A DNA stretch of 64,000 bases from Candidatus Multivoradales bacterium (GCA_965223325.1 CBDCWI010000001.1:992001-1056000), one strand, 5' to 3'; shown: positions 7,741 through 64,000, numbered from the stretch's first letter. Notes: generated by a model not told the origin, from the letters alone. Numbers and translations are program-made.

Positions 7741-7805
7741 TTGATAGCTTGAAAATCGAGTTTTTCTATTTTCTCGGCAACAACTCTTTCTTTGTGAGGC
7801 TCCCC

Positions 7806-19800: not shown

Positions 19801-21461
19801 TCGACCTAATAGCCGTCGACGCCTCGGGCCAGGCGACTCTCGAGGTGGAACTGTTCGGTGCCACGACAGCCTCAGACAACCCTGACCACGGCATCATCTT
19901 GCGCATCAACGGTGCGCTGGTGGGTAACGTCGACTGGGACGGCGACGGAACGCGGACTCACACACTGACCTTCGACGGCAGCGTGCTGCAGGCGAACAAC
20001 ACTCTCGAGATTGAAGCGGTCCTACACGACGGTGTCTCCGCGAGTGTCATGTACGTCGACGCCTTCTCGGTGACCTACCGCAGGCAGGCACTGTCGGTCG
20101 GCGACCAGCTGCACGTCGTCTCCGACGCGGCGGCCGACCGCGAGGTCACTGGCTTCTCGACGCCGACGGTGAGGGCAGTCGACGTGACCGATCGCCGCGA
20201 TCCGCTGCGTATCAACGGTGGCACCGTCGACAGCGACGTCGGCGGCTACAGCTTCCGCTGGCATGCCGACGCGGCTTCGGAGTACTTCGTTTACAGCACC
20301 GAAGCGATCAGCACCCTCGTGCCGGTCGCCGCCTATCGACCGAAGGCAGTCGAGGCCGAATACCTGGTCTTCGCACCACCCGAGCTGCTCGACAGTGCAT
20401 TCGATCTGGCCAGCTACCGCGCCGCAGACGGCTACGCCACCAGCGTCGTCGAACTGCTCGATGTCTGGGACGAGTACAGCGACGGGCTCGAGAAGGGCGC
20501 AGCGATTCGCGAATACCTCACCGAAGCCTGGAACGACTGGGCGACGAAACCACAGTTCGCCGTCATCCTCGGCAAGGGCACGCTCGACTTCCGCAACGTG
20601 CTCGGTGGCGACACCAACCTGGCCCCGCCAGAGATGGTGGCCACACCGCAGGGTCTGTTCGCTTCGGACGCCGGCCTCGGTGATGTAGAAGGCGACGACG
20701 GAGTCCCGGAGATCATTGTCGGCCGCATTCCGGCGGTGAGCGAGGCCGAGGTCCTGAACTACCTCGACAAGATGGCTGCCTACGAAGCGAACGCCGGCTC
20801 CGGCCGCGTCCTGCTCGCGGCGGACAACGCCGACGAGGGCGGCGCATTCGAGCGTGAGGCCGAGGAAGTGGCCGGGCTGCTTGACGGTTACGAAATCGAA
20901 AGGGTGTACCTGGAACCAGGTGGTACAACCGAAGCGCGCGCCGCGGTTCGTGCTTCGATCGAAGAAGGCGTCTGGCTGGTGAACTACGTCGGTCATGGTG
21001 GCCTTGACCGCTTCGCGGCCGAGGGCCTGTTGACTACTGCCGACGTCGGCTCCCTCGGCCCGCAGGGGCATCTACCGATCGTCGCCAGCATGACCTGCAG
21101 CGTCGGACGCTTCGAGTTGCCGAACTACTCATCGCTGAGTGAGGCTCTGGTGACGAGTGTCGATCGCGGCGCGATCGCCGTCTGGGCACCGTCGGGTCTG
21201 TCGATCAGTGCGGATGCGAACCAGCTGAACAGGGCCTTCGTCGAGGCGCTGCGCACGCACTCCACCCTGGGTGAAGCGATGCGCGAAGCGATGCAGACCT
21301 ACGAAGGTGGCGATGTGGCCTTCCCCCACATGCTGAAGATCTACAACCTGCTCGGCGATCCCGCCCTCAAGGTCGAGGCCCTGCCTCTCCAGGAAGGCGG
21401 TCTCTTCAGCGACAGCTTCGAGTCCGGCAACACGACCGCCTGGTCGAGAGTCGCCAACTAA
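7806..21461 (+). CDS. Giant secreted adhesin/peptidase (~4551 aa): three beta-sandwich domains, ~22 SdrD B-like repeats, proprotein-convertase P domain, propeller-like region, C-terminal C25 (gingipain-family) peptidase
   Basis: Signal peptide after ATG 7806 (GAGG RBS); repeats SIGDRV(W/F)xDxNGNGxxD...DFGY; P-domain VNVALNISH...LDDFNGTDSQGTWEL; C25 motifs VGRIP, VNYVGHGG, MTCSVGRF, YNLLGDP. Confidence 0.85.
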   Translation: MSTHRPAVVPLLATLFLFALSAPTAAQVTLPWSENFDSTTNATYTTASTIVGATNFAYDPGAADNGRVRTRAITGNGGSIGSLAFDTSSGSADNFVNLTLDLSSYNTSQTILLNYYNNDIGDETHSQDQVWVRGSSVDSWLLVESWQNRTTHVWIPHKDINLTSILVAGGQSFSATTAIRFGQYDTVGISGDGLGIDDVCVRVQGQSCPGTTSGTASIGDRIFIDANGNGIDDGESGYPNAEVLLRASTCTGVVLDVATTNSTGAYDFTGLAAGTYCVDVSASTISYVYTLTTSNEPLTKTLTAGEDYNGADFGYQNQTGSIGDRIFNDANGNGTDDSEAGISGVQLYLRQNSCSNGPSYLRTTSATGAYDFTGIAPGTWCVDVLENTLPAGYTLTTANEPKLVTLPALGDINNVDFGYQAPAPVLPFYEDFEATSSATYTTAATIVGATDFSYDPATVDTGRLRTRAIAGHGSSTGVLSMDATGGNSDNYVILELDLSAYAVASDTVVLDYWFIDHQDETHATYDTVWVRGSNTDTWIELNSWQGGSVNVWVQKTSLDITDALCKGPAPLPSCTPSSPVQDFSSTFQIRWGQYDNTTIAGTDGMSFDDVCVRKSTQTCSPPPTGTASIGDRVYNDVNGNGADDSEAGLSGVQVHLRSGSCGGAILSSKTTTSTGAYDFTSLAAGTYCVDVNAATLPSGYVLTTSNEPYLKTLTAAEDHNGADFGYQQQNASIGDRVFHDVNKNGTDDSEAGLSGVTVQLRSGSCSGSVVSTKVTTSTGAYDFTGLAAGTYCVDVTAGVPAGYSLTTSNEPLTTTIAAGQDYNSGDFGYALSTGVTLPYIEDFESTTSATYTTASTIAGATKWSYDPGAADNGRLRTQALAGNGGSTGALILDTSSGYADGFAVLTLDLSSYTTAQTILIDYYINDIGDETHTQDKVHVRGSSSDPWVVVENAWANNSNHYTWMPHKNLDLSAILLANSQNFSSTTAVRWGQYDNASTNADGLGIDDVCVRVAGQSCGGSTGTGSIGDRVWNDINGNGTDDSEAGLAGVQVMLKSGTCGGVVLDYQVVPASGAFDFTNLAAGTYCVDVNASTVPSGYYLTTSNEPLTYTLAAAQDYNGADFGYQYQAGSIGDRVWNDANGNGIDDSEAGISGVQIYLRANSCSNGPSYGRTTLADGSYDFTNIPPGTWCVDIIEASLPAGYTPTTTEPVLVTLPVLGDINTADFGYCSGCGSSVPSIGDRIWNDANGNGTDDSEAGISGVTVNLRSGTCSGSVTATKVTTSTGAYDFTGLTAGTYCVDVDASTLPAGFVLTTGNEPLTYTVGAAEDFNGADFGYQQQNASIGDRVFDDANGNGTDDSESGIQSVTVWLKSGSCSGSTVSTKVTTATGAYDFTGLAAGTYCVDISEATLPAGYSLTTSNEPKLVTLTAGQDDNTADFGYSNSPPTVGTIGDRVWDDLNNNGVDDGEPGLNGIEFFLRSGSCTGSVVDLVTSNASGAYDFTNVSAGTYCVDVRGSSIPSGYSLTTGNEPLLVTLAAGQDYNSADFGYHRAASIGDRVYDDTNGNGFDDGEPGLSGVNVRLRSGSCAGSIISSQATSGGAYDFTGLSAGTYCVDVQESTLPPGGYALTSANNPMLVTVTNGQDWNGSDFGYRIGGPVLAPITATYENTTASAVDEISKTLTPCSTPLKRTFVVADSITLSDVNVALNISHPRPYQMSIDIKGPTGLTRTIVSGNASTSDPNIDAIIDKASSLPLDDGDRLDNVGVPYYDRVATPYVMGGGLSLDDFNGTDSQGTWELLICDWLPGYHGTFHRAQLQLSGTGVGGSSVGNRVWLDANANGIDDGEAGISGVRVDLRHGSCAGAIVDSKLTSATGAYNFTAIRRGQYCVDVDESTLPVGAVLSGGLEPHLTSVLTAGQAYNQADFGYRIDNASVGDRVWNDVNSNGSDDSEPGLAGVRLVLRQDDCSGPVLAMQITDTSGAYDFTQLGPGDYCVDVDEASLPAGSTHTGGTEPRLLTLNPGQDLNTVDVGYNAPGTGTGSIGDLIYEDVNTSGTYDAGDLPLPGIVVELQSAGCTAGVNCPRTTTDSSGQYLFGNLPATTFNVKLVNSLLPTGTIKTTIDPINVALGAGQNYTTADFGLDTPVMIRGCFWEDKNYDGIRGPGEDYGISDGVSLRAQRTVSPLTTYSASVNYATGCYEITGFSAAEHTLSANLKTAYSFSDISPLNSAGKNGMRWHTLVDIGGDEQFDNDFGPGDGYYIHGGVHGPVFTHNGIGTVSNIDVGYVWNPVLGDKVWHDVDQDGTQDASEPGVPGVTVEVWRPDGTVPYYTTVTDHDGTWEAGNFFSRRAIGKASELTPEDDHREGDMLPGEWYVKYILPNGTAYQFSPQDAAGDDALDSDANASGQTDVFTLLSNSTKDEASDPDYDAGVYTSCSSTSGKIKGIVFQDYNGNGFMDPLEGFFAGTVVKAYDKTNSVIASTTTASDGTYALSVPNGKAVRIEFSSLANNSNPGPVGNGAGATVQFATSPACGVNLAITRFEDYCQPNPRVASACYVESGGDQSLAAILDVPWDISEADPPWFQSGLHNYPADASEIGSVYGLAYHRSSQQLLAGAMASAGTNLPPDGLGAIYSIDYKTTPETITLFIDVAAAMQSRFGISNYSGTIADPPPADDPKIAKVGLGDIELSDDQQTLWVMSIADSYRELLELPLGAGGTAPAPADIERHPLPLNQLDCTNDNDIRPWGLGMNHSDSNDDLVYVGVVCSAESTGDVENLRAYVYTFNPTGNTWAQIINMPIAWKHYDYNSSYWQEWEDSQDDAEPVIADIEFDRGDMVLGIRARGGDSAHNASSPTGDMIRVCKSGAVWEVESNGTCGGRTTLGANSAQGIGGGEYYWADDSANGWGEIFTGGMATRPGFSELVAANKDGHYRWHNGFSWVTSMGNRTRMYDIFEGHGNQYGKTNGLGDVEVLCDAPPIEIGNRVWADIDENGIQDPGESPLAGVALELVDASCSTVASAVTNSEGEFYFIGSNDPRAAAAMGDTSVGQVPGSIAFNATYYVKVLDSNFQAGNALDGYEATAANQSSDLHDSDASTVSCGTRSTGLAQRAALSFVGAVVVTGGAGANNHALDLGFGDNPVVGRIGDRVWFDVNRDGEQQGGEEGIAGVDVRLYVDDGDGVFEPGGDDTLSGTRTTNAEGGYGFFGLLAGDYWVDPVESTLPTGFAATAGTPAQLFVPLASGQDIDTADFGYAPVTGVALGDFIWHDTDGDGLQDPGEAGIGGVTVTVTGPGSYSQATTTAANGSYLVSGITTAGDYTATVSTGTLPAGLTTTPTNFPTAAHVFTVDLAADVLIADYGFTGGTTGTIGDFVWHDVDGDGVQDAGEPGIQGVTVDLTDNSGEVLATMTTDASGAYDFTGLFAGNFRVEVTDLGGITTGLTLTTPPNPTNTIALAAGQDYNNADFGYASASLGTIGNFVWHDTDGDGVFDDGEHGLERVVLGLWKDEDSNGVFNAALDSLQQSQLTDRFGGYLFKNVNWGSYFVIVHDDEQVTDALSMTSGTAGQDNNSQSSPYPVTITASRAPAVLTADFGFTAPGAAFQLSGTVWFDNDGDGTREPPDESGVGGATVELYRDMNGDGVLDETDPLFGVVTSQTTSPGLGYYEFTDLPNGTDWIVVVDTSGSYLDGAIQTTQTATGGLEPVAIAGANSPNHDFGFTRPSTDALVSDFDVTLGPAGVQVEFATASEVGTVGFWVFREYGSEWTRVNDDLVLAVPGAGQGANYLLPDTTAEPGVAYDYWLLEVELSGAEQWHGPFTVAAVDATAHPVSALEFAPRGNEYHQRRMEDAGLVHLRSADFSRERDRTVRAGEPGYRARLEVDREGVYRVTAADIALVTATTRPTKDLVGSGALRVVSNGEEVSWWAEGANAIRFYAPEPERQFAEFDVYFIEMVEGTEAGAISSPTSGPTVATSHFDRQRFEEDIFYATAALRDETVDLWYWKVLAAGNPDVGTQTFDFDLIAVDASGQATLEVELFGATTASDNPDHGIILRINGALVGNVDWDGDGTRTHTLTFDGSVLQANNTLEIEAVLHDGVSASVMYVDAFSVTYRRQALSVGDQLHVVSDAAADREVTGFSTPTVRAVDVTDRRDPLRINGGTVDSDVGGYSFRWHADAASEYFVYSTEAISTLVPVAAYRPKAVEAEYLVFAPPELLDSAFDLASYRAADGYATSVVELLDVWDEYSDGLEKGAAIREYLTEAWNDWATKPQFAVILGKGTLDFRNVLGGDTNLAPPEMVATPQGLFASDAGLGDVEGDDGVPEIIVGRIPAVSEAEVLNYLDKMAAYEANAGSGRVLLAADNADEGGAFEREAEEVAGLLDGYEIERVYLEPGGTTEARAAVRASIEEGVWLVNYVGHGGLDRFAAEGLLTTADVGSLGPQGHLPIVASMTCSVGRFELPNYSSLSEALVTSVDRGAIAVWAPSGLSISADANQLNRAFVEALRTHSTLGEAMREAMQTYEGGDVAFPHMLKIYNLLGDPALKVEALPLQEGGLFSDSFESGNTTAWSRVAN

Positions 21462-52093: not shown

Positions 52094-52145
52094 AAAAAGG
52101 CGGCGCCCCCACCACTTTTGTGGTTGAGGCGCCGCTTTTTCTTTT
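52094..52145 (+). terminator. Rho-independent terminator (possibly bidirectional)
   Basis: AAAAAGGCGGCGCC...GGCGCCGCTTTTTCTTTT stem with flanking A and T tracts, just after the stop at 52075. Confidence 0.8.
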
Positions 52146-52263
52146 CGCTCATTAGGTGGAGAGGCGTGGGCCGAACGCCAGGAACCCGCGGCCCGCGGCA
52201 TTCTTTCAGGGATCTCGGGTGCTCCCCGAAGCAGCGGGCCGTCACGCCGACAAAAAAAAGCGG

Positions 52264-52279
52264 TGGCACACAACTCGCA
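52264..52279 (+). promoter_or_regulatory. Sigma-54 (-24/-12) promoter for the S8 peptidase gene
   Basis: TGGCACACAACTCGCA fits TGGCAC-N5-TTGCA with exact GG-N10-GC spacing; 95 nt upstream of ATG 52374. Confidence 0.7.
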
Positions 52280-52288
52280 CTACTGGTC

Positions 52289-52338
52289 TGTCGACAGTGT
52301 TCTGTTGACAGCCGTTTGTCGACACCGGTTTGTCGCCA
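52289..52338. repeat. Four palindromic TGTCGACA-like octamers at 14-bp period
   Basis: TGTCGACA 52289, TGTTGACA 52303, TGTCGACA 52317, TGTCGCCA 52331. Confidence 0.8.
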
Positions 52339-52373
52339 CCCACTTCCGCCCGCGCACTTCTGGAAGACCACCC

Positions 52374-55300
52374 ATGCCACGCACCCTCCGCAAAGCGACC
52401 ACCCGCCCCACGCCGTACTCGCTGATCGGCCGCGTCACGGTCGTCCTACTCCTGGCAGCCTCGTTGGCCACCCTCTCGAGCGCCGAGGAACCGTCGAGCT
52501 ACATCGTGCAGGCATTGAGCGACCGCCAAGCAGCGCTCCAGGTCGAAGCCCAGGGCGGCACCGTCGATCAACGGCTTGCGATCATCGATGGCGTCGCCGC
52601 CAGCCTGACCAGGGAACAGGCCGCGGCGCTCACCCTTGTTCCTGGAATCACCCTCCAGCGGAACGCCGCGGTCGAGGTCGAGAGCACAGAGCTCATTCGG
52701 CGTCGCTTCGAGATCACGAGCGGTTCCGACGACGCGATGGAGACCATCGACACTGGCTATGCCAACACCCGCTATGACAAGCATTTCGTGGGCGGCAACT
52801 ATAGTTCCGAGCGCCTCGTCGGGCTTCGATTCCGCAACCTCGACGTGCCTCCGGGAGCCAAGATCGTCAGGGCAATGCTCGAGGTGGAACTGGTATCGCT
52901 CTCCTGGAACCAGACCGAGGTCGATGTGTTGGCCGAGGCCACAGGCCATGCCGAAGCGTTCGCCGACGAGTACTTCAACCTGTCGTCGCGTCCGGTCACT
53001 GCCCACAAGGTGCGCTGGCAGTTGGCCGGTACCGCAACCCCGGGAGTTCGCACCCAGAGCGCTGACCTCTCACCTGTTGTCCAGTCGATCGTCGATCGCG
53101 AAGACTGGCAAGCGGGAAATGCGCTCGCTCTCCTTTTGCACTCCCGCGCCAGCGGCGTTCGCCCGATCGCCGCCTTCGAGGCCTGGGGCAGCGGTCAACC
53201 GGTTCTTCATCTCGAGTACCAGCTCGCCGACGCCGCCTGGCCCGTCGTGAGCTCGAGCGTTCGGCGCGGTAACGCCGATGCACTGCAACGCCAAGACAAC
53301 GGTGTCGTCTTGATGAACACGTCCGATCTCGACTTTTCGGCCGCTGACCAGGACGCGGAGATGGCCAGCACCCAGGTTGGCCTCCACTTCGAGGACCTGG
53401 CCATCCCAGCAGGCACAACGATCCTCTCTGCGAGCATCCAGTTCGAGGCAGCGGCGGCTGCCGCCGGAACAGCCTGGGTCGAGATCCACGCGGAACACAA
53501 CGCCGACGCCACTGCTTTCTCGAGCACCTGGTTCGATCTCACCAACCGACCCCGCACCCGCAGCAATGTGGTCTGGCGGCCAGCGTCATGGCAGGCACCA
53601 GGTCAGCTGCAGTTCACCGACGATCTAGGTGCGCTGGTCCAGGAGGTCGTCGATCTGCCCGGCTGGCAGCCCGGCAACGGCATGTCCTTCTTCTTCGAAG
53701 GCCTCATCGGCACACGGCCCGTCCGTTCAAGCGAGGGCGGCGGCGAGATCCAGCTGCTCGTCGAGTATGCCGGGGACTACGTCGACATCGCGGTCGACAA
53801 CTCGCACGCGGGCGCATGTCAGCAGCCGGTCGGCTCGAGCAACCTGAAGATCGTTGCGGCCTCTCTGAGCGGCGTCGACAGCGCCACGATCGAAGTCGCC
53901 GGTGGCGCGCCCAACGCTCCACTCTCGCTCGACGGCAAGGTCGTCGGTTGCCTTGACGACCATGGCTCGTGGTACGGCGAGCTCTACGGGCACCACTTCG
54001 ACACCTGCGAAGTCACCATCTCGGACGGCCTGTCCAGCATTGGCGTTACGGTTTCCGACTGCGTCGCCTGGCGCGACACCCACTTCCCTCTCCAGACCGG
54101 TGCGCGTGAGCTCCACCGCCAGGGCCTGACCGGCAGCGGCGTGGGCATCGCCTTCATCGACACCGGCATTCAGGGACGCCTCGACTGGGGATCGAACGTC
54201 TTCAAGATGGCAGCCCACTACGACGTTCTGCAGAATCGGGCCCTGCACTTCTGGACTCGCGACGCCGATCGGAACGGCCACGGGAGCCACGTCGCTTCGG
54301 TCGCCGGCAGCCAGGGTCAAACGCCAAACGGCGACTACAACGGGATGGCGCCGGAGGCCGACATCATCATGGTGCGCGCCTTCGATCGTCACGGCCGTGG
54401 CAGCTACGCCAACGTGATCGAAGGCATCGAGTGGGTGATCAACAACCGCCACGCGCTCAATATTCGGGTCCTCAACCTCTCGTTCTCCGCCCCCGCCACC
54501 TCGCACTACTGGCAGGACCCCCTGAACCAGGCGGTGATGGAAGCGTGGCGGGCCGGCATCGTCGTCGTCAGCTCGGCCGGCAACTCGGGCCCCGACCCGA
54601 TGACCATCGGCGTGCCGGGCAACAACCCCTACGTCATCACCGTTGGCGCGATGACCGACAGCTACACCCCGAACGACCCAAGCGACGATCGCATCGCCAG
54701 CTTCTCGGCCGCCGGGCCGACCTTCGAAGCCTTCGCCAAACCAGAGCTCGTCGCCCCCGGCGGGCACATGCTGGGCCTCATGAACTTCGACGCTCAACTG
54801 GCGCTCGACCACCCGACCTTCCACGACGGTCCGACGGCGGTGCCCTATTTCGTGATGTCGGGTACTTCACAGGCTGCCGCGGTCGTCAGCGGCGCAGCCG
54901 CCTTGCTTCTCCAGTCAGAGCCTGGGCTCGAACCGGACGACGTGAAGTGTCGACTGGTCGCGACCGCGAAAACGGCGACACTCGAGAACGGCGACCTCGC
55001 CTTCAGCATCTTCCGCCAGGGCGCCGGCATGCTCGACATCAAGGCGGCGGTCGACAGCAGCGCCCACGACTGTGCCAACAGCGGCCTCGACATCGACCGT
55101 GACCTCGCCGACATCGAACACTACGTCGGCCCGGTGCGATACGACAGCGCCAGCGAACAGTTCTACCTCGAGGGGCCCGACAGTTTCCTATGGAACGTCT
55201 CTGGCCCCGAGAGCGAGAGCATGCTTTGGAACGTCAGCATGCTCTGGAACAACAGCTTCCTGTGGAACGTGAACGACGTCAGTAACGAGAGCTTCTTGTG

Positions 55301-55460
55301 GAACGTCACCTACTCGGCGAACGAGGTCGATCTCGGAAGCTCGAGCATGCTGTGGAACAACAGCTTCCTCTGGAACGTCAGCATGCTCTGGAACAACACC
55401 TACACCGGCGACGCTCTGGATTCCGCGACGGCGGTCAACACCTGGGTTCCCCAGGAGTAA
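52374..55460 (+). CDS. Secreted S8 (subtilisin-family) serine peptidase with two inserted beta-sandwich domains and a C-terminal S-[FM]-L-W-N repeat tail
   Basis: Signal peptide; propeptide SSYIVQA; triad motifs IAFIDTG, NGHGSHVAS, MSGTSQAA; oxyanion SAGNSG; eight SxLWN repeats; ends VNTWVPQE. Confidence 0.9.
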   Translation: MPRTLRKATTRPTPYSLIGRVTVVLLLAASLATLSSAEEPSSYIVQALSDRQAALQVEAQGGTVDQRLAIIDGVAASLTREQAAALTLVPGITLQRNAAVEVESTELIRRRFEITSGSDDAMETIDTGYANTRYDKHFVGGNYSSERLVGLRFRNLDVPPGAKIVRAMLEVELVSLSWNQTEVDVLAEATGHAEAFADEYFNLSSRPVTAHKVRWQLAGTATPGVRTQSADLSPVVQSIVDREDWQAGNALALLLHSRASGVRPIAAFEAWGSGQPVLHLEYQLADAAWPVVSSSVRRGNADALQRQDNGVVLMNTSDLDFSAADQDAEMASTQVGLHFEDLAIPAGTTILSASIQFEAAAAAAGTAWVEIHAEHNADATAFSSTWFDLTNRPRTRSNVVWRPASWQAPGQLQFTDDLGALVQEVVDLPGWQPGNGMSFFFEGLIGTRPVRSSEGGGEIQLLVEYAGDYVDIAVDNSHAGACQQPVGSSNLKIVAASLSGVDSATIEVAGGAPNAPLSLDGKVVGCLDDHGSWYGELYGHHFDTCEVTISDGLSSIGVTVSDCVAWRDTHFPLQTGARELHRQGLTGSGVGIAFIDTGIQGRLDWGSNVFKMAAHYDVLQNRALHFWTRDADRNGHGSHVASVAGSQGQTPNGDYNGMAPEADIIMVRAFDRHGRGSYANVIEGIEWVINNRHALNIRVLNLSFSAPATSHYWQDPLNQAVMEAWRAGIVVVSSAGNSGPDPMTIGVPGNNPYVITVGAMTDSYTPNDPSDDRIASFSAAGPTFEAFAKPELVAPGGHMLGLMNFDAQLALDHPTFHDGPTAVPYFVMSGTSQAAAVVSGAAALLLQSEPGLEPDDVKCRLVATAKTATLENGDLAFSIFRQGAGMLDIKAAVDSSAHDCANSGLDIDRDLADIEHYVGPVRYDSASEQFYLEGPDSFLWNVSGPESESMLWNVSMLWNNSFLWNVNDVSNESFLWNVTYSANEVDLGSSSMLWNNSFLWNVSMLWNNTYTGDALDSATAVNTWVPQE

Positions 55461-55600
55461 CTCTCGAGAAACGGAACCAGAAGATTCACAACCAGGTCGC
55501 AGCGGGACAGTTCCTTGCGGCCGCAACGTAGACGACGAACCCCGCCCGGCTGTTTCCTCTTCAACTCGGGTTCTTCCCCTCACCCCCTTCATTTCCTTTT

Positions 55601-55637
55601 GCCCCGGTGACCTTCTGGTCGCCGGGGCCTTTTCTTT
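55601..55637 (+). terminator. Rho-independent terminator of the S8 gene
   Basis: GCCCCGGTGACC-TTCT-GGTCGCCGGGGC followed by CTTTTCTTT. Confidence 0.75.
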
Positions 55638-55653
55638 GGGGAAGGGCTCTCCT

Positions 55654-58600
55654 TCAGAGTGCGGCGAGGCGATCGGTATCAGAGAGGTTGGTGTCGCCAT
55701 CCGTGGGTTCTTCCTCCGGGGCGAACGAATCGTTGGCCGCCACCTGCGGTGGACCCAGGCGCTCGAGACGGCGACGATAGGTCGTCGTCGTCACACCGAG
55801 AATCGCGGCGCCGCTGCGCCGGTCAACCTCCGGGCGGCGCGCGACTTCTTCCAGCAGGAGACCTTCGAGCAGACCATCGAGGTCAACGCCTTCGGCCGGT
55901 CCACCGTAGCCCGGTCCGGCGATCACCCGCAGGCGGGATCGAATCGCCGTCCACCACGGCGGACGCGGCGACAGACCAGCATCGGCCCGCAGGTTGGCTT
56001 TGCTGCGCCGACGGCGGAAGGTCGTCTCTGCCATACCCAGACGCGCCGCAGCACGGCTCGCCGTGCCGTTTTCGGCATCGTCGGCGGCGAGCACCAGGTC
56101 ATCGGCAAGCCACTCGCCCAGCGGCAGGAGCGGATGCTCGCCGGCCACCATGCCGTCGATGCGCTGTGCGAGCAGTTCACGAATTGACGAAACAGCCTCG
56201 CTGCGGGTCACCGGTTCTTCTTCGTGCCCCTCGGCACGGTTGACGGGCGCACCAGGGGGCGCGCCCTCGGTCGCTCCTCCTATGACCGGGCCCCCAGAGG
56301 CGATCATGTTCTCAGTCTCTCTGCCGTCGAGGCGCAGTGCTTCGGGTCCGATGGCGCTACCTTCAGCCAAAATCACCGCCTGCTGCACCCGGTTCTGTAG
56401 CTCACGTACGTTGCCGGGCCACGAATGGCCCACCAAGAGCGCCTCGGCCTCGGGCGTCAAGGAGACCACCGGCTTGGAGTAGAGCAGCGAGTAGGTCCTC
56501 AGGTAGTGGTAGGCGAGATGCAGAATGTCGTCGGGACGCTCACGCAGAGGCGGCAGTCCGAGGCGGACGACGTTGAGACGATAGTAGAGGTCCTCGCGAA
56601 AGCGACCGGCCTTGACCTCGGCCATCAAATCGCGGTTGGTCGCCGCCACCACGCGCACGTCGACGGAGCGAGTTTCGGTCGCACCGACTCTACTGAGTTC
56701 CTTCTCCTGAACGAAACGCAGCAGCTTCGACTGCACCTCGAGCGGCAGCTCGCCGATCTCGTCAAGAAAGACGGTCGCGCCGTCGGCCTGCTCGAGGCGA
56801 CCAATACGGCGCTGGTCGGCGCCCGAGAATGCCCCCTTCTCATGCCCGAAGAGCTCGCTTTCGATCAAGGTCGCTGGAATCGCCGCACAATCGACGACCT
56901 GCAAGAGCCGGTTGCGACGGCCGCTCGAGCGATGCACGGTACGTGCAACCAGGTCCTTTCCGGTCCCGCTCTCGCCGGTGATCAAGACCGTCGCGTCGGT
57001 CGGAGCGACGCGGCGCACGGTCGCCATGACACTCTCCATCGACTCAGAGCGGTATTCGAGATTGGCCTCTTCGACCGCCTGGCGCAGTCCCTCGACCTCG
57101 GCACGTAGTCGTTGGGCCTCGAGCTCACGCCGCTCCTGCTCGAGCGCTGACAACTTGGCGCGATCGAGCGCGACGGCGAGCTGCGAGGCCAGCGAACGGA
57201 AGAACACCACGTCGGTCCCGTCGACGAGAAAGGTCTCCGTGCTGCCTTCGAGATAGATGGCGCCCAGGCAGCCTTCGCCGACCGACAGCGGAATGGCACA
57301 ACAGCTTCGTGCGTCGCCGACGCCGACACCCCCGTCACTCGCCACCAACTCGACGGTTGGTCGCCCCAGCGCGACGGCGCGCTGGGCCAGATCGGGCGAG
57401 GACACGATGAGCTCGTCGGTCTCTTCTTCGTGACCGCGGCCATGGATCAGGTGCAACTCGAGAGGATCGGAATCTTCGCTCGAGCATTCGAACAGCCCGA
57501 TCTGATCGGGCTTGAGCCCTACCTCGAGACGCTCGACCGCCAGCCGGGCGAGGTCGTGGTAGCTGCTACTCGCCGCGACCACTTTGACGATCTCGGCGAG
57601 CAATTGCATGTTTCGATAGTCCTTCGCCATGTTGCCGGTGAAGACACCGCTCAGTGCATCGGGATCGCCTGCCTTCTCGAGATCTGGCGACCAGTGCACG
57701 ATGGTCTGGCCACTCGAACGACGCGCCTGGAAGAGAGCCTCTTCGGCCTGGACGGTGAGCTCGAGAGGCTGTTTGATCAAGCCCGACTCGGGATCGAGCG
57801 TCGCAATGGCTGCCCGGAAGCGGAGGGTCAACGACTCGCGGTGATACCGCCGTCCCTGCAGCTCCTTGACCAGCTTCTCGGCCACCAGGGCGCTGGCGTC
57901 GCGATTGGCGTCTTCGAGCACCGCGGCAAAGATCGCACCGCCGTAGCGGGCCGCAAAGTCGGACTTGCGTAGCGCCGAACGGAAGGTGAGAGCGATCTCG
58001 CGCAAAACCCGATCGCCCTTCTGATGACCGAAACGCTGGTTGACCATCGCAAAATCATCTGGGCTCACCAGCAGCAGACTCAGCGGGAGATTGCCCTTTG
58101 TGGCACGCGAGAAGGCACGGGCCAGCCGACCCTGAAGCTGCGCTCGACCACCGACCCCGGTCACCGGGTCGCTCAGCACACCCACGACTTCACGCACCTG
58201 GGCCGCCAGTCTGGCCGTCGAACCAATCGAGAAGCGCCACCACAGAAGGTCTGGGTTGGCCTCGATCTGGCTGTCGAGGTCTTTGTCTCGCTCGAGCGGA
58301 CAGGTGCCCGGCGCGAAGCGAAGCCCGATGAGTACCGTCGTCGACGCAATCAGAAGCTCGACCGAGTCACCGCGCCGGCGCCCCCGCGCCTCGGCATCGT
58401 CTCCTGACGCGCGGCGCGGCCGCACGACCTTCCGGAGGATGCAGCAGTCCGGGTCACTGCTCGGCAACACTTCGATGCGCTGTGCAGCGCCGATTGAATC
58501 CAACCCGCTGGGCAACCCTTCGGGACCTCCCTGAGCGTTGCTCTCCGAGGCCAGTTCGGGCGGCGGTGCGCCGCCACTGTTGAGCCACAGCGCATCGAAG

Positions 58601-58701
58601 CCGGCGCCCTCTCCATTGGGTACCCAGACCGTCACCGACAAGACCTTGCCGTGGTCACGCACCGCGCCGAGGTAGCTCCGAAGAATGTCAGCTGGGCCCA
58701 T
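55654..58701 (-). CDS. Sigma-54-dependent enhancer-binding protein: degenerate GGDEF, GAF, AAA+, two HTH-like motifs
   Basis: GESGTGKD, ESELFGHEKGAFSGA, FLDEIGE, RFREDLYYRLNV, WPGNVRELQN; GGDEF-like region RKSD-FAARY-GGAIF; GAF CAIPL...GAIYL. Confidence 0.9.
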   Translation of the reverse strand: MGPADILRSYLGAVRDHGKVLSVTVWVPNGEGAGFDALWLNSGGAPPPELASESNAQGGPEGLPSGLDSIGAAQRIEVLPSSDPDCCILRKVVRPRRASGDDAEARGRRRGDSVELLIASTTVLIGLRFAPGTCPLERDKDLDSQIEANPDLLWWRFSIGSTARLAAQVREVVGVLSDPVTGVGGRAQLQGRLARAFSRATKGNLPLSLLLVSPDDFAMVNQRFGHQKGDRVLREIALTFRSALRKSDFAARYGGAIFAAVLEDANRDASALVAEKLVKELQGRRYHRESLTLRFRAAIATLDPESGLIKQPLELTVQAEEALFQARRSSGQTIVHWSPDLEKAGDPDALSGVFTGNMAKDYRNMQLLAEIVKVVAASSSYHDLARLAVERLEVGLKPDQIGLFECSSEDSDPLELHLIHGRGHEEETDELIVSSPDLAQRAVALGRPTVELVASDGGVGVGDARSCCAIPLSVGEGCLGAIYLEGSTETFLVDGTDVVFFRSLASQLAVALDRAKLSALEQERRELEAQRLRAEVEGLRQAVEEANLEYRSESMESVMATVRRVAPTDATVLITGESGTGKDLVARTVHRSSGRRNRLLQVVDCAAIPATLIESELFGHEKGAFSGADQRRIGRLEQADGATVFLDEIGELPLEVQSKLLRFVQEKELSRVGATETRSVDVRVVAATNRDLMAEVKAGRFREDLYYRLNVVRLGLPPLRERPDDILHLAYHYLRTYSLLYSKPVVSLTPEAEALLVGHSWPGNVRELQNRVQQAVILAEGSAIGPEALRLDGRETENMIASGGPVIGGATEGAPPGAPVNRAEGHEEEPVTRSEAVSSIRELLAQRIDGMVAGEHPLLPLGEWLADDLVLAADDAENGTASRAAARLGMAETTFRRRRSKANLRADAGLSPRPPWWTAIRSRLRVIAGPGYGGPAEGVDLDGLLEGLLLEEVARRPEVDRRSGAAILGVTTTTYRRRLERLGPPQVAANDSFAPEEEPTDGDTNLSDTDRLAAL

Positions 58702-58711
58702 CAGAATCTCC

Positions 58712-61700
58712 TCAGGTCCACACCAGTTGACCGATGTCGAGCGACGAGCTCACTTCGATACGTTTCTCGGCGGCGAGGTCACGCAGGCAACCGGTGTCGA
58801 GATCGGAACTCACGATCCAACCGCCGTCCTCTTCTTGGGTGCCACGAACGCCAACCCAGGCGTTGCGTCCGCTGGTCTTGGCGACGTATAGCGCTCGGTC
58901 GGCGATGTTGACCACCTGCTCTGGCTCGACCACCGCCGGCATCTCGGGATGGAACGGGAAGAAGGCGTATCCGATCGAGCAGCTCAAGCTGCAGTGGCTG
59001 CCGTCGGCCATGACCAGTTCCTCACCGGTAAAGGCAGCGCGCAAACGCTCAGCCATCGACTCGGCGTCCGCGGGCGAAACATCGCGACTGACCACCAGGA
59101 ACTCGTCGCCGCCCCAGCGAATGAGGGTATCGCTCTTTCGGCAGACTCCCTGGAGGACATCCCGCATCTGCAGAATGGCCCGATCACCTGCCGCATGGCC
59201 ATGGTCATCGTTGATCTTCTTGAGGCCATCGAGGTCAATCATCAGGAAGAGAAGGTCCAGCTTGCCCTGACTCTCGTCCACAGCTCGGCGACCGTCGGCG
59301 TAGCCCCGGCGAAGCTCCTCGAAATCCTCCTCGAGGCGACTCATCAGGTAGCGCCGGTTGCGCAAGCCGGTCAACGCATCGCTATTGGCCGCTTCATGCA
59401 GGTCCTGGGTGCGGAGACGGACCTCCTCTTCGAGCCGACTGCTGTACTCCTTCTCGCGCATCATCTTGCGTCGGTGGGAATGTAGAACCCCAGCGAAGAC
59501 ACCGCAAACAGCACCGAAGTAGAAGAGATAGGCCCACCAGGTCTTCCACGGCGCCGGCACGACACGCACTCCCAGCGATGCACCCTCCTCGTTCCACACA
59601 CCATCGTTGTTCGCAGCGCGCACTCTCAAGGTGTAGTGACCGCCGTCGAGGTTGGTGTACGTCGCGCGGCGCTCGTTGCCAATCGATATCCACTCGCGAT
59701 CGAAGCCCTCGAGCTTGTAGGCGAATTGATTGCGCGACGGAGCGAGGTAGTCGAGTGCGGCGAACTCGAACGAAACGACGTAGTCTCGATAGTCGATTTC
59801 GACCTCGTCGGTGAGCCAGATCGGTTGCGGCAGTTCCACCTCACGGTTGAGCTTGCGAAACGAAGTGATCATCACCGGCGGCACGTGGCGATTGGCGTCG
59901 ACCTGGTCGGGCCAGAAGGTGTTGAACCCCGCACTGCCGCCGAAGAACATCTCGCCGCTGGCAGCGCGGTGATAGGCGCCGAAGTTGAACTCCTCTCCCT
60001 GCAGACCGTGCTCACGGCCGTAGTTGGAGAAGTGCTCGCTCACCGGGTCGAAACGCGACAAGCCACCGTTCGAACTGATCCACAAGTAACCCTGGTCATC
60101 TTCGAGCAGACCGTAGACCGTCTGGTCGGCGAGGCCATCTTCGGTGGTGAAACGTCTGAATACCGGTCGTCCCGCCTCGCGGTCGCGCCTCGACCAGGCC
60201 GAGAGCCCGAACTGTGACCCGATCCACAGCGTGCCGGTTCGGTCGATGAGCAGCGACGTCACGCGGTCGTCGCTCAGGCTGTAGGGGTCGTCGGGATCGT
60301 GACGAAAGTGCTGCGTTTTGCCGGTGCGCGGGTCGAACAAGTCGAGGCCTCGGCCCATGGTTCCCAGCCAGAGGCGACCGTCTCGGGAGGCCAGGATGTC
60401 GGCAACCAGGTCGGAGCCCAGGGTCGTTTCGTCTAGAGGGTCGTTCAGCCACGACTCGAAGGTCTCACTGGAACGCTCGAAGCGACTCAAGCCGCCACGG
60501 AACGTTCCGACCCAGAGGTCGCCGTGCGGATCTTCGTAGAGGGACATGACGCCGTTGGCCGGTAGCTGGCCACTGCCCGGCGGCCCGGCAACGAAGCGGT
60601 CGAAAGACCTGCCGTCGGAACGCAACCGGTTGAGGCCATGATCAAACGTACCCACCCAGAAGTCGCCTCGACGATCGGCAAGTAGCGCCATCGTGCGATT
60701 GTCAGAAAGGCTCGCCGGATCTTCCGGATCGTGCCTCCATACCGCCGTGACGTCCCGCTCGTCGTTCATGCGGTTGAGACCACCGCCGAGAGTTCCGATC
60801 CAGAGGTCTCCCGAGGCGTCGGTAGCAAACGATGTCACCGCATTGTGGGACAGCGACCCGTCCTGGGCGGGATCATGCGTGTAGTGGGCGAAAGCGTTGG
60901 TGAGCGGCGCCGTCCGATCGAGGCCGCGCTGGTGAGTTCCAATCCACACCACGCCACCCCGATCCTGATAGAGGCGCTTGATCAGGTCTTCGGCGAGGCT
61001 GTTGGCACGGTTCGACTGGTGGTAGTAGCGCGCGAAGCCCGTGGCTCCAGCCGATCGCAGATTCAGGCCGCTATCGGTTCCGACCCACAGTGCGCCAGCT
61101 CGGTCCTCGAGAACCGCGTGAACGGCGTCGTTGCTCAGGCTGGTCGGATCGTCGTCCAGGTGGCGAAGGTTTTCGACCACCTGGCCTGCCCGGTCGAGGA
61201 CGAAGAGTCCGTGGCCAACCGTGCCGACCAACAGCCGTCCGTCTTCGCTGGCGAACAGGGAGCGCACTTCCGTCGCTCCCTCGAGGCGCACCGCTTCGAC
61301 CACACCGTCGCGCGAGTCCAGGCGGAACAGACCGTTTCGAAGCGTGCCCACCCACAACGTGCCGCGCCCATCCTCGAGTAACGCAAGCACGTGTGGCCCG
61401 CGGTCGAAGCCCGGAATCGCGACGGCTTCGCACGCCCGCGTCCGCGGATCGAGACGGCTGAGCCCGAGCTCGCTTCCGATCCAGACGTCTCCACTCGCTC
61501 CGACTTCGACGGCGCGGACGTCTTGCGGAGCTTCTGGATCACGGTTTCCAATGCGCTCGAAGGAGTCTGTCGTCGGATCGAAACGGTTGAGTCCGCCCTG
61601 GTTCGTGCCCACCCAGAGTACTCCGTCGTCCCCTTCGTCGATCGCCCACACCCAGTTCTGACTGAGACTCGTCTGGTCGTCGGGGCGGTGCTCGTAGACC

Positions 61701-62044
61701 CTGAACTCCTGACCGTCGTAGCGGTTGAGGCCATCCTCTGTACCAATCCACATGAAGCCCAGGCGATCTTGATGCAGCGCCATGATCGAGAGCTGCGAGA
61801 GGCCGTCCTCGTTGGTCAGGTGATCGACGCGCAGCGCCTGCCCTTCGACCGTCGGCACGATGACATTGCTGGTGGCAATCGCCGCAACCCAGAGCATCAC
61901 CCAGCCCAGGAAACGCAGCATGGTCGCGGCGGGCCCCGAGAGGCCCGAGGCTCCGCGCGATGCGGGCGAAGGAGTGGCGAGTCGATGCATCGAGGCAGAA
62001 ACGGCAGGAGGGGACGAAACAGGGGAAAGGTGGTGTCGACCCAA
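58712..62044 (-). CDS. Membrane-anchored sensor diguanylate cyclase: Reg_prop beta-propellers, Y_Y_Y, TM, GGDEF
   Basis: About 14 repeats of D..G.LW(I/V)GT..GL.R; Y_Y_Y YKLEGFD..W...ATYTNL..GHYTLRVRAANNDGVW; PWKTWWAY TM; DALTGLRNRR, DLDGLKKIND.HGH..GD, RWGGDEF. True start may be 61990 or 61921. Confidence 0.92.
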   Translation of the reverse strand: MGRHHLSPVSSPPAVSASMHRLATPSPASRGASGLSGPAATMLRFLGWVMLWVAAIATSNVIVPTVEGQALRVDHLTNEDGLSQLSIMALHQDRLGFMWIGTEDGLNRYDGQEFRVYEHRPDDQTSLSQNWVWAIDEGDDGVLWVGTNQGGLNRFDPTTDSFERIGNRDPEAPQDVRAVEVGASGDVWIGSELGLSRLDPRTRACEAVAIPGFDRGPHVLALLEDGRGTLWVGTLRNGLFRLDSRDGVVEAVRLEGATEVRSLFASEDGRLLVGTVGHGLFVLDRAGQVVENLRHLDDDPTSLSNDAVHAVLEDRAGALWVGTDSGLNLRSAGATGFARYYHQSNRANSLAEDLIKRLYQDRGGVVWIGTHQRGLDRTAPLTNAFAHYTHDPAQDGSLSHNAVTSFATDASGDLWIGTLGGGLNRMNDERDVTAVWRHDPEDPASLSDNRTMALLADRRGDFWVGTFDHGLNRLRSDGRSFDRFVAGPPGSGQLPANGVMSLYEDPHGDLWVGTFRGGLSRFERSSETFESWLNDPLDETTLGSDLVADILASRDGRLWLGTMGRGLDLFDPRTGKTQHFRHDPDDPYSLSDDRVTSLLIDRTGTLWIGSQFGLSAWSRRDREAGRPVFRRFTTEDGLADQTVYGLLEDDQGYLWISSNGGLSRFDPVSEHFSNYGREHGLQGEEFNFGAYHRAASGEMFFGGSAGFNTFWPDQVDANRHVPPVMITSFRKLNREVELPQPIWLTDEVEIDYRDYVVSFEFAALDYLAPSRNQFAYKLEGFDREWISIGNERRATYTNLDGGHYTLRVRAANNDGVWNEEGASLGVRVVPAPWKTWWAYLFYFGAVCGVFAGVLHSHRRKMMREKEYSSRLEEEVRLRTQDLHEAANSDALTGLRNRRYLMSRLEEDFEELRRGYADGRRAVDESQGKLDLLFLMIDLDGLKKINDDHGHAAGDRAILQMRDVLQGVCRKSDTLIRWGGDEFLVVSRDVSPADAESMAERLRAAFTGEELVMADGSHCSLSCSIGYAFFPFHPEMPAVVEPEQVVNIADRALYVAKTSGRNAWVGVRGTQEEDGGWIVSSDLDTGCLRDLAAEKRIEVSSSLDIGQLVWT

Positions 62045-62069
62045 GGCTCGGGTCGAGCAAGGACCCTAA

Positions 62070-62098
62070 ATTTTAGCGAAAAACTAGTTTTAAAACAA
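62070..62098 (-). promoter_or_regulatory. Sigma-70-type promoter for the DGC-bEBP operon
   Basis: Minus strand TTGTTT-N17-TAAAAT in an AT-rich patch; spacer contains the palindrome AAAACTAGTTTT. Confidence 0.55.
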
Positions 62099-62271
62099 TA
62101 CGAATCATGACAAAGCGGCCGAAAAAGCGGCTGAAGGCCTTCTCGGCGCTCTCCGGACCAGGAAGCGATTCCTGGGGAGGGATGACTCACCATTTACATG
62201 GATGCATGAAGGTCTCTAGACTGGGGCGTTCTCTTTTGATGACTTTCCCCGCGATCCCAGGAGGTCCCCCT

Positions 62272-62724
62272 ATGTTCCGCCGCGACACTTCCGAGCCCGA
62301 TACCGAGCCCACACCGCCCCCGACCACCAACAAGGCTCAGGCAACCTCCACCCCTGCTACGCCCACCACCCCAGCGGTCCGCACCACGGCATCACCGACA
62401 GCGACCGCCCGCCTCGGGCCATCGCTGCGCTTCAAGGGCGAAGTCCACGGAGATGAAGACCTCCTGATCGAAGGCAAGCTGGAAGGCGAGGTCCGGCTGA
62501 GCGGGCAGCGAGTCACCATAGCGCCGCAAGCCCGCATCGAAGGCGACGTTCACGCCGAAACCATCGACGTTCGCGGCGAGGTGAAAGGCAACCTGTTCGG
62601 CAAGAGCGAAGTGATCGTCGAACCCGAGGCGAAGGTCGACGGCAACCTCACCAGCCCGCGCGTCAACCTGCAGGAGGGTTGCCGGTTCCAGGGTTCGATC
62701 GACATGAGCGGCACAAAACCCTGA
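62272..62724 (+). CDS. Bactofilin (polymer-forming cytoskeletal protein)
   Basis: LGPSLRFKGEV.GDEDLLIEGKLEGEV...GCRFQGSIDM beta-helix; AGGAGG RBS; Pro/Thr-rich N-terminal tail. Confidence 0.92.
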   Translation: MFRRDTSEPDTEPTPPPTTNKAQATSTPATPTTPAVRTTASPTATARLGPSLRFKGEVHGDEDLLIEGKLEGEVRLSGQRVTIAPQARIEGDVHAETIDVRGEVKGNLFGKSEVIVEPEAKVDGNLTSPRVNLQEGCRFQGSIDMSGTKP

Positions 62725-62738
62725 CGCAACCCGAGGAA

Positions 62739-62812
62739 TCCCAGAACCACCCCAGTCGATTGCCCGGGAAACGCCCGGGAACTGCCCGGGAAACGCCCGG
62801 GGATTGCCGGGC
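62739..62812. repeat. Dispersed intergenic element, copy 2: leader TCCCAGAACCACCCCAGTC plus four to five GCCCGGGAAAC-like units
   Basis: Units start at 62762, 62773, 62784, 62795 and (partial) 62806; matches 21483-21557. Confidence 0.85.
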
Positions 62813-63018
62813 GTGTTTCTACGAAAACTCGTGGACTTGACTGTTTTCAGCGAGCTGAACCATCTGACAACTGCTGATTTGTGGCAAACTGGCTTTATCT
62901 GCACTCCCTGATATCCAGAGGACCACTCGATCTACGAGTGGCCCCGACCCGCTTCCGGCCCTCCTGCAGGGGTACTCGAAGCATCGATCGCGCCGGCAGA
63001 TCGGCGCCTGGTTCTTCT

Positions 63019-64000
63019 ATGACGCCTTCCTTGTCGCATCTCGAGGATAAGTACGAGATTCTCGGCCGCATTTCACAACGCGGCATGGGGGCTGTCTATC
63101 GCGTGCGCCACCGGCTGCTCGACGAGGTGCGTGCGGTCAAGATCCTGCGCCCCGACCTGGTGACGACCGGCGCACTGCGCGACCGCTTCCTCTACGAGGC
63201 GCGCACCGCGACCCGTCTACGCCATCCGAACGTCGTTCAGGTCCATGACTTCAGTATCGACGAAGAGGGAGCCGGGCTGATCATCATGGAGTACATCTCC
63301 GGCTGTACCCTCGAAGACCTGGGCCGGCGCTTCGGCACACCGCCGATTCCTCTCGCCGTCGAGGTCGCACGCCAGAGCCTGCGTGCACTCGGGTACCTGC
63401 ACCGTCGCGGCACCGTGCACCGTGACGTCTCCCCCGACAATTTGATGTTGACCCGCGACGTCGACGGTGAGCCGCTGATCAAGCTCATCGATCTCGGCAT
63501 CGCGCGCAACTCACGAGACGACGCAGTAGAAACCGACGGGCTGTTCATCGGCAAGGTGCGTTTCGCCTCACCGGAACATTTCTCCGACGGGGAACGTGGC
63601 GGAAACCCGATTGATGAGCGCAGCGATCTCTACTCACTCGGCGTGGTGCTCTTCCAATGGCTGACCGGTGTCTGCCCGATCGAAGGCAGCTCCCTGGAAG
63701 ACCTCGCCAACGGCCACCTTTACTACCCGCACCGTGCGTTCGACTCGGTCGACCCCGCCGGCAACGTCCCGGCAGAGCTTCGCCAGCTGATCGAGCAACT
63801 CCTGATCAAGAACCCCGATCGCCGGCTACAAACCGCCGAAGAAGCCCAGGCGCTGCTCGACGAGTTGACGGGACGCTTCACGCACATTCCGCTGGTTCCG
63901 CTGACCGAGGAGCTCCTCGGCCCGAACCCTCGCGACGAACCGGCCGTCGAACTGACCGAAGTGTTCGACCGCGACGACAGTCTCAACGGAGCCCGCCAAC
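63019..64000 (+). CDS. Hanks-type Ser/Thr protein kinase, 5' part (runs off window end)
   Basis: Not in ORF track. Manual translation MTPSLSHLEDKYEILGRISQRGMGAVY...AVKIL...HPNVV...HRDVSPDN...IDLGIAR...ASPE...SDLYSLG; open to the end of the window. Confidence 0.92.
   Translation, partial: MTPSLSHLEDKYEILGRISQRGMGAVYRVRHRLLDEVRAVKILRPDLVTTGALRDRFLYEARTATRLRHPNVVQVHDFSIDEEGAGLIIMEYISGCTLEDLGRRFGTPPIPLAVEVARQSLRALGYLHRRGTVHRDVSPDNLMLTRDVDGEPLIKLIDLGIARNSRDDAVETDGLFIGKVRFASPEHFSDGERGGNPIDERSDLYSLGVVLFQWLTGVCPIEGSSLEDLANGHLYYPHRAFDSVDPAGNVPAELRQLIEQLLIKNPDRRLQTAEEAQALLDELTGRFTHIPLVPLTEELLGPNPRDEPAVELTEVFDRDDSLNGARQ

Follow-up and report, generated by a model that had tools for sequence, protein, structure and literature searches.

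The 64,000-nucleotide stretch of DNA analysed here (the window; Candidatus Multivoradales bacterium, GCA_965223325.1, CBDCWI010000001.1:992001-1056000) carries, between positions 52,264 and 62,098, a gene for a secreted subtilase of peptidase family S8 that ends in a tryptophan-rich repeat tail. Converging on this gene is a two-gene operon for a sensor diguanylate cyclase and a sigma-54 activator (bacterial enhancer-binding protein, bEBP). A preliminary description of the locus had listed the three genes with their domains and motifs, a 10-bp gap within the operon and a sigma-54-type site 5′ of the peptidase gene, all of which are present, and had proposed that together they form a closed signalling circuit running through cyclic di-GMP (c-di-GMP). 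Comparison with related loci supports a functional link between the three genes, and points to a path by which the sensor may control the peptidase promoter.

Architecture of the locus

The S8 open reading frame (ORF) occupies 52263..55460 on the plus strand (1065 codons). Its GTG overlaps the promoter-like site described below, so that the true start is most likely the ATG at 52374, giving a gene at 52374..55460 (assigned from the ORF, Pfam and sequence motifs). Read from this ATG, the protein begins with a signal-peptide-like N-terminus (about 52374-52484, plus strand; a basic stretch, a hydrophobic stretch and LSSA), followed by a propeptide-like stretch, two copies of a domain of ~200 amino acids (aa), the catalytic domain, a C-terminal subdomain and the Trp-repeat tail. 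The catalytic domain (aa 624-905, 54132..54977, plus strand) matches Pfam Peptidase_S8 at 4.6e-48. The catalytic triad is read at Asp 54150, His 54279 and Ser 54861, in the motifs AFIDTG, HGSHVAS and GTSQAAA, and the Asp, His and Ser, together with the oxyanion Asn, are unchanged across 58 homologues, which places the protein in the S8 (subtilase) family. In the AlphaFold model the catalytic and C-terminal subdomains have a predicted local distance difference test score (pLDDT) above 90. The residues before the catalytic domain (484 aa) had no match in Pfam or the ESM Atlas. The two ~200-aa domains of this N-terminal extension (52488-53939, plus strand) are shared with the genome's paralogue and partially matched in one other locus (L060); most members of the tailed-subtilase family are without the extension, their median length being about 600 aa.

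The operon lies on the minus strand, the cyclase gene (58712..62044, likely start ATG 61921) being followed after the 10-bp gap by the activator gene (55654..58701), which is convergent with the S8 gene. Most of the cyclase is a tandem Reg_prop propeller with a Y_Y_Y domain (59540-61840; Pfam 1.3e-57 and 1.5e-19, respectively), predicted to be periplasmic. Hydrophobic segments stand on either side of it (aa 42-65 and 836-854), from which the topology is predicted; the latter, judged from its hydrophobicity, would be the second transmembrane segment (59483-59539). The C-terminal GGDEF domain (58862-59389; Pfam 1.3e-31) carries an intact RKSD-x5-GGDEF motif (59099-59140) and DLDGLKKINDDHGHAAGD, and so has the sequence features of an active diguanylate cyclase, as which it is predicted to function.

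Pfam matches, motifs and a structural model together identify the second gene of the operon as a sigma-54 activator. From the N-terminus, all on the minus strand, it comprises a GAF-like domain (58174-58701), a degenerate GGDEF domain (57715-58173, from a domain match), a GAF domain (57163-57567, likewise), an AAA+ domain (56311-57051; Sigma54_activat, 1.1e-68) and a C-terminal region (55657-56310). The first 175 aa had no Pfam match, and their GAF-like fold was read later from the model. The AAA+ domain has the Walker A (GESGTGK) and Walker B (FLDEIGE) motifs of an enhancer-binding protein and the loop GAFSGA, a Thr-to-Ser variant. Two helix-turn-helix-like stretches are visible in the sequence of the C-terminal region, where the HTH_8 match reached 16.7 bits, below the Pfam cut-off of 22. 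The degenerate GGDEF domain reads RKSD-x5-GGAIF (57928..57969), in which an intact RxxD inhibitory-site motif stands beside a dead active-site motif.

Upstream of the S8 gene lies a candidate −24/−12 promoter of sigma-54 type, TGGCACacaacTCGCA (52264..52279, plus strand; GG at 52265-52266, GC at 52277-52278), which matches 10 of 12 consensus positions and is placed ~95 nt 5′ of the ATG at 52374. Terminator-like hairpins are found on both sides of the gene (about 52100-52145 and 55601-55637); the second, between the convergent genes and read on the plus strand, has 12 pairs, 10 of them G-C, and a T run. No sigma-70-like match was seen 5′ of the window's S8 gene, which, bracketed by hairpins in this way, therefore looks monocistronic. 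Just 3′ of the sigma-54-like site, in the predicted S8 5′ leader, the word GT[C/T]G[A/C]CA occurs four times (GTCGACA, GTTGACA, GTCGACA and GTCGCCA; 52288-52338, plus strand, spacing 14–15 nt). These words, which are absent from the leader of the paralogue, could be an operator.

Conservation of the gene set

A scan with an alignment of the tail, covering one genome per species (185,579 species), recovered 110 relatives in 63 loci of 46 assemblies. Judged by record title, the hosts belong to the Acidobacteriota (chiefly Thermoanaerobaculia) and the Gammaproteobacteria (among them Halieaceae, Woeseiaceae, Steroidobacteraceae, Chromatiaceae and the cultured Thiocystis violacea DSM 208), with a single member of the Gemmatimonadota. 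When the window's domains were compared with these 63 tail loci by tblastn, a Reg_prop sensor was found in 27 loci (26/46 assemblies), an EAL gene in 14 loci and an activator with the degenerate GGDEF (GGDEF*) and GAF domains in 10 loci (9 assemblies). In 15 of the 63, fewer than 900 nt lie between the tail and the start of the sensor that follows it on the same strand. Because many contigs are short, all these counts are lower bounds; among the 20 tail loci with full 10-kb flanks, a sensor is present in 12.

All-against-all clustering of the 583 ORFs from the tail loci, with recurrence taken as presence in more than three loci, returned four families alone: the tailed subtilase (94 members, 56 loci), the propeller sensor (30 members, 25 loci), a GGDEF-EAL protein (11 loci) and the activator (9 loci). 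No exporter, modification enzyme or other partner recurred in this clustering. The same company is found from the side of the activator, full-length homologues of which stand beside Reg_prop/Y_Y_Y sensors, GGDEF-EAL and tailed S8 genes in 8/13 loci (L014, L016, L018, L020, L022, L024, L025 and the window's type). In relatives, the subtilases adjoining activator homologues carry 8–12 tandem DGFLWS-like hexapeptides and end in VN.WV.QE. Adjacency of activator and tailed S8 gene is seen in both Acidobacteriota and Gammaproteobacteria (L016, L018, L024, L030, L041, L042, L047 and L051).

Within the window's own 6.69-Mb genome, Y_Y_Y genes and tailed subtilases each number exactly two, and they form two adjacent pairs. 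The second pair (L091; G000:C2:2545000-2564900, 6482-13223) consists of a divergent Reg_prop-Y_Y_Y-GGDEF gene and a tailed subtilase with eight QGFAWD units and the C-terminus INTWVPQE. Between the pairs, the sensors are 41% identical in their periplasmic part and the peptidases 54%. Elsewhere, a Y_Y_Y gene lies 2.5–9 kb from each tailed S8 gene whose contig is adequate in four genomes (G010, G030 with 3/3, G036, and G040 with four contigs), and at that distance from one of the two tailed subtilases in G039. Tail and activator family occur together in 8 of 41 relatives, the tail only in 2, the activator only in 3 and neither in 28; these relatives are not independent of one another, and the eight genomes with both span seven genera.

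A chance neighbourhood was considered and rejected in view of the recurrence across phyla, the co-occurrence within genomes and the 2/2 pairing of sensor and peptidase in the window's own genome. The claim of the preliminary description that the three genes are functionally linked and belong together is thus supported by comparative sequence evidence. It also seems fairly likely, from the distribution of the families, that the window holds one representative of a four-part module, conserved and passed between phyla.

Sigma-54-like sites upstream of tailed peptidase genes

A conserved GG-N10-GC promoter before Trp-tailed S8 genes, for which the preliminary description had suggested looking, was sought in the 300 nt upstream of 81 unique genes, with the opposite strand of the same regions as control. 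Sites were scored against TGGCACG-N4-TTGCW with GG and GC fixed, and were called where ≥10/12 positions matched. The coding strand carried such a site in 34/81 genes (38/86 before removal of duplicates) and the opposite strand in 0/81; the background in the tail loci is 0.065 sites per kb per strand. Most sites fall 50–80 nt 5′ of the first ATG. In the window's genome rpoN is present, and the paralogous tailed subtilase gene is preceded by TGGCAAaccatTTGCT, ~80 nt 5′ of its ATG. Dependence of the tailed peptidase family on sigma-54 is, on the evidence of these upstream sequences, very probable.

No site was found before the window's cyclase–activator operon in the ≥10/12 scan of the window. 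In other genomes, sites matching 10–11/12 positions stand directly 5′ of a GGDEF-EAL gene (L020:3793), a DUF4388–activator pair (L021:3811), a propeller sensor kinase (L022:270) and an activator gene (L024:13361), which suggests feedback on the regulators there.

Alternative outputs of the propeller sensor

The sensors encoded beside tailed subtilases are 36–47% identical to the window's in their periplasmic part, and are joined to four alternative C-terminal outputs. One is GGDEF, as in the window (also L091, L042, L051, L061, L041, L084 and L018); another is a hybrid kinase with PAS, HisKA, HATPase, one to three receivers and Hpt (L028, L029, L057, L077, L061, L067, L041, L056, L070, L022 and L025); a third is GGDEF-EAL (L036). 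In the fourth, the periplasmic sensor is fused directly to PAS-Sigma54_activat-AAA_lid (L054:4449-8894 and L076:3287-7750). By their domain order, these two fusions are membrane-bound one-component enhancer-binding proteins encoded beside a tailed subtilase, and they constitute the strongest single argument that the role of this sensor is control of a sigma-54 promoter, as the preliminary description had it when it placed the sensor above a sigma-54 activator. The fusion loci add no promoter support of their own, since the S8 upstream region reaches 9/12 only in L054 and has no site in L076.

Combinations of these parts are also found within single loci. In L022 the sensor is a kinase and is separated from the activator by a REC-PAS-GGDEF-EAL gene, an arrangement that fits c-di-GMP as intermediate. 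Thiocystis violacea (L041) has two tailed subtilases, sensors of both the GGDEF and the hybrid-kinase type, and the activator.

The degenerate GGDEF domain of the activator

Throughout the activator family the active-site motif is GG[A/V][I/V/L]F, without an acidic residue (18/18 members), in place of GG[D/E]EF, whereas the RxxD five residues upstream is retained in 16/18. The pairing of a degenerate GGDEF with RxxD in an enhancer-binding protein, read in the preliminary description from one sequence, is therefore a family trait. A dead active site with RxxD is the signature of degenerate GGDEF domains of the receptor type, to which the activator belongs by sequence and which would predict binding of c-di-GMP. 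A model of the first 360 residues (mean pLDDT 85) shows a GAF-like domain joined by a long helix to a GGDEF domain, and resembles c-di-GMP-bound PleD, WspR, GcbC, the GAF-GGDEF cyclase Dcsbis and a phytochrome cyclase. Its motifs suggest that the activator probably reads c-di-GMP at the RxxD site of the GGAIF domain.

The Trp hexapeptide tail

The tail takes up the last 90 residues of the window's S8 protein. It consists of eight [F/M]LWN[V/N][S/T/N] hexapeptide units with short spacers (55182..55436, plus strand; read from the sequence and its repeats), and at 55218-55394 Tandem Repeats Finder detects a repeat of period 18 nt (9.8 copies). The extreme C-terminus, NTWVPQE (55437..55457, plus strand), is conserved, at least 46 of the 58 homologues ending W-x-x-(Q/H/R)-(E/Q). 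The SxLWNxS tail of the window is a divergent form of the family repeat [F/Y/M][L/V]W[S/N/A/G]D[G/S]. The 58 aligned tailed subtilases have a median of 9 units (range 4–14) and 22 consensus words, of which FLWSDG is the commonest. The tail has no model in Pfam or NCBIfam and no ESM Atlas match. Many genomes carry tandem arrays of tailed subtilase genes, with at least seven genes in L026/L032 and in L060/L061.

Units of identical peptide within one gene differ synonymously in 25–42% of codon comparisons, and no amino-acid change was found among up to ten such units. Selection must therefore act on each unit, the pattern being due not only to recent slippage, and by this codon evidence each hexapeptide is under strong purifying selection. 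The repeats have a pLDDT of 25–30 in the AlphaFold model, rising to 63 in the last six residues; according to the model, the tail is probably a disordered C-terminal extension, maintained by selection. A known sorting signal was considered as an identity for the tail and was rejected on the usual marks of such signals, since the end residues are acidic and there is no terminal membrane helix.

The alignment of the tail also matched, with its repeat part and each time with a weaker match of its N-terminal part, G010:C4:287541, G010:C7:3889571, G010:C6:1728105, G015:C94:1768 and G015:C114:12265. These matches sit in ORFs of 568 to 1507 aa, and the Trp repeat may thus, to go by the sequences, occur on proteins of other sizes or architectures.

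Other genes in the window and around related loci

At 62107-63999 (plus strand), transcribed away from the cyclase gene, lie genes for a bactofilin and a Ser/Thr protein kinase; they are not conserved in the other loci. Further upstream in the window, at 7749-21461 (plus strand), is the gene of a 4570-aa protein with at least 21 repeats of SdrD_B/CarboxypepD_reg type and a C-terminal Peptidase_C25 (gingipain-type) domain. In G001, a relative of the same genus, the activator homologue (L013; G001:C3:550000-569900) is flanked by genes for a DPP-IV/S9 peptidase and a Calx-beta autotransporter.

Discussion

Taken together, the parts of the locus suggest a path from the periplasm to the peptidase promoter. 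The propeller and Y_Y_Y domains of the cyclase would bind an extracytoplasmic ligand, for which a peptide made by the subtilase is the leading single candidate, if a tentative one. The GGDEF domain of the sensor would then synthesise c-di-GMP, which the co-transcribed activator would bind at the RxxD of its GGAIF domain. Binding would switch the AAA+ ring on or off, and the activator would remodel sigma-54 holoenzyme at TGGCAC-N5-TCGCA and so drive the monocistronic subtilase gene; it would probably also drive the second tailed subtilase of the genome. That the full path, from sensor through c-di-GMP, activator and sigma-54 to peptidase, operates in the window we consider rather probable on comparative grounds. 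The binding of c-di-GMP, the service of this promoter by this activator, the sign of the regulation and the ligand are the elements of it that we infer.

Several observations weigh against this path. The site TGGCACacaacTCGCA has a C at the −14 position in addition to matching at 10/12 only, and as the whole window contains 2 sites at ≥10/12, where shuffled sequence gives a mean of 5.1, it is by itself within chance; its weight comes from its position and from the sites at homologous genes. Even in the family, 47/81 tailed S8 genes have no site at the threshold, both Thiocystis violacea genes (L041) among them. No activator is found near the second S8–cyclase pair of the genome (L091). G001 encodes the activator (51% identity) yet is without tailed S8 and Y_Y_Y genes; conversely, in G036 and G040, tailed S8 genes and sensors are present and this activator family is absent. 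Comparison of the genome's two S8 promoters did not find a shared upstream activator site, only a 9-mer at inconsistent positions, and the genome holds at least 20 other sigma-54 AAA+ matches able to serve the promoter, while NtrC-type REC-AAA+ activators also appear in some of the related loci (L022, L024). The observations from G001 onwards would suit an arrangement in which this activator works at other promoters and the S8 gene depends on a different sigma-54 activator, the neighbourhood reflecting shared c-di-GMP regulation or chance. We think that arrangement quite unlikely, given how tail and activator are distributed among the 41 relatives, the adjacency of activator and tailed S8 gene in two phyla, and the sensor–sigma-54 AAA+ fusions of L054 and L076. 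The nucleotide step has an alternative of its own. The substrate-site Asn and Asp (NPDDF..VNER.G...GD) persist in the GGDEF* domain, a retained part that leaves room for a role in sensing GTP or as a scaffold for dimerisation or docking, for example of the neighbouring cyclase or phosphodiesterase, the GAF domains carrying the signal. Two GAF-type domains do flank it, and there are precedents for dead GGDEF domains that bind GTP and for trigger-enzyme contacts. Such a role nevertheless appears unlikely, since RxxD is retained in 16/18 members in spite of the dead active site, a basic residue (K or R in most members) stands ~28 positions past it, at a putative PleD-equivalent position, and cyclase or GGDEF-EAL genes accompany the activator in 7/13 loci.

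The identity of the ligand decides whether the path from sensor to peptidase closes on itself. Closure by any peptidase-derived peptide is a tentative proposition, which we hold to be somewhat improbable. In the form given to it by the preliminary description, the subtilase would cut its own tail to Trp hexapeptides, which would enter the periplasm, reach the propeller, raise c-di-GMP and thereby autoinduce the peptidase. The hexapeptides would then be diffusible words, the system one of Gram-negative peptide autoinduction or kin signalling, and the paralogue arrays a vocabulary of such words, a reading as doubtful as the self-cleavage that it presupposes. In its favour, the module is self-contained, in that only the peptidase, the sensor, the GGDEF-EAL phosphodiesterase-type protein and the activator recur, with the sensor as the peptidase's tightest neighbour; purifying selection acts unit by unit, as it does in multi-copy peptide precursors; paralogues carry different repeat words (22 among 58 proteins); the tail is exposed and disordered in the models; the hydrophobic F/M-L-W triplet would suit cleavage by a subtilase; and the genome's two sensors are less alike than its two peptidases. 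Distances between tail words and between sensors, with catalytic-domain distance controlled, gave a partial Mantel r of 0.23 (permutation p about 0.04, 17 pairs), a weak correlation in which shared ancestry is not fully controlled and which carries no weight. Against it, arrays of 7 to >10 paralogues, differing in their words, stand beside one or two sensors (L026/L032, L060/L061), which argues against private peptide–sensor pairs; G028 has 12 tail matches and a single Y_Y_Y gene, on another contig; 8/20 tail loci with full 10-kb flanks are without a sensor, which also tells against the path as a whole; and those Reg_prop/Y_Y_Y sensors whose ligands have been solved are known to bind sugars, not peptides. 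We accordingly think self-cleavage to signalling words highly unlikely. A complex prediction for the periplasmic propeller and the tail scored 0.00, which is no evidence either way.

Alternatively, the loop could be induced by substrate, after the manner of a polysaccharide utilisation locus: the subtilase would digest environmental protein and the propeller would sense the product peptides, while the tail would serve otherwise, for example as a tether to the cell surface or to particles, or as a C-terminal pro-region. The same adjacency data speak for this, as does the logic of the Bacteroides hybrid two-component systems, which sense products of the enzymes that they control. One or two sensors for many paralogues would suit a common product better than private tail words, and the hosts, titled Woeseiaceae, Halieaceae and Thermoanaerobaculia, belong to sediment and sand lineages. 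It leaves unexplained, however, the strict conservation of each hexapeptide unit, and we regard it, too, as unlikely.

Were the path from sensor to peptidase true, it would constitute a new c-di-GMP route to sigma-54 promoters, via a dead GGDEF domain fused to the activator. Apart from this, the comparison brings out a so far undescribed family of subtilases, linked with propeller sensors in sediment bacteria of two phyla, and the four sensor outputs beside the same target gene amount to a natural experiment in the rewiring of one input. The module is small (four gene families) and is present in the cultured Thiocystis violacea DSM 208, so that these questions are directly testable.

The module is a new variant assembled from known kinds of parts, undescribed in the literature searched. 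No description of the module, of the Trp tail or of the activator architecture was found there, nor any report of a GGDEF-type receptor fused to a sigma-54 activator (subscription journals were outside the coverage); the guess of the preliminary description that such wiring is novel stands within these bounds. Its parts have recognisable counterparts. In possessing an extension beyond the catalytic domain, the peptidase resembles subtilases with a C-terminal pro-region of the aqualysin type, and in its many identical short tandem units it resembles multi-copy precursors of the yeast alpha-factor type; unlike the latter, it has the repeats fused to the protease itself, and no modification enzyme or exporter recurs nearby. 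Reg_prop/Y_Y_Y sensors are familiar from the hybrid two-component systems of Bacteroides, which detect glycan fragments and combine kinase, receiver and AraC-type domains. As there, a tandem-propeller and Y_Y_Y sensor is encoded beside a secreted hydrolase gene and its output is modular, but the hydrolase in question is here a peptidase, and the sensor ends in GGDEF, a hybrid kinase, GGDEF-EAL or a fused sigma-54 AAA+ domain.

For the activator, the nearest functional parallels are FleQ of Pseudomonas, FlrA and VpsR of Vibrio and Nla24/EpsI of Myxococcus, NtrC-family AAA+ activators whose output is set by c-di-GMP (PMC10333796, PMC3424551). In such c-di-GMP-responsive sigma-54 activators, as far as the cited sections describe them, the nucleotide site lies in the AAA+ or receiver portion (PMC10333796). 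The window's activator differs from these, by its sequence, in having a separate dead GGDEF domain with RxxD, which has a GAF-like domain on its N-terminal side and a second GAF domain on its C-terminal side. In the model, its N-terminal 360 aa align with Dcsbis (PDB 4zmu) and the phytochrome cyclase 5llw over 362–389 columns; those are active cyclases, whereas the GGDEF domain of the activator is without the acidic residues of the active site and is followed by GAF, AAA+ and HTH-like parts. PelD and PopA serve as c-di-GMP receptors by means of a degenerate active-site motif with RxxD retained five residues before it. The activator shares with them both the dead motif and the RxxD; their outputs are polysaccharide synthesis or protein localisation, and here the output would be a sigma-54 AAA+ ATPase.

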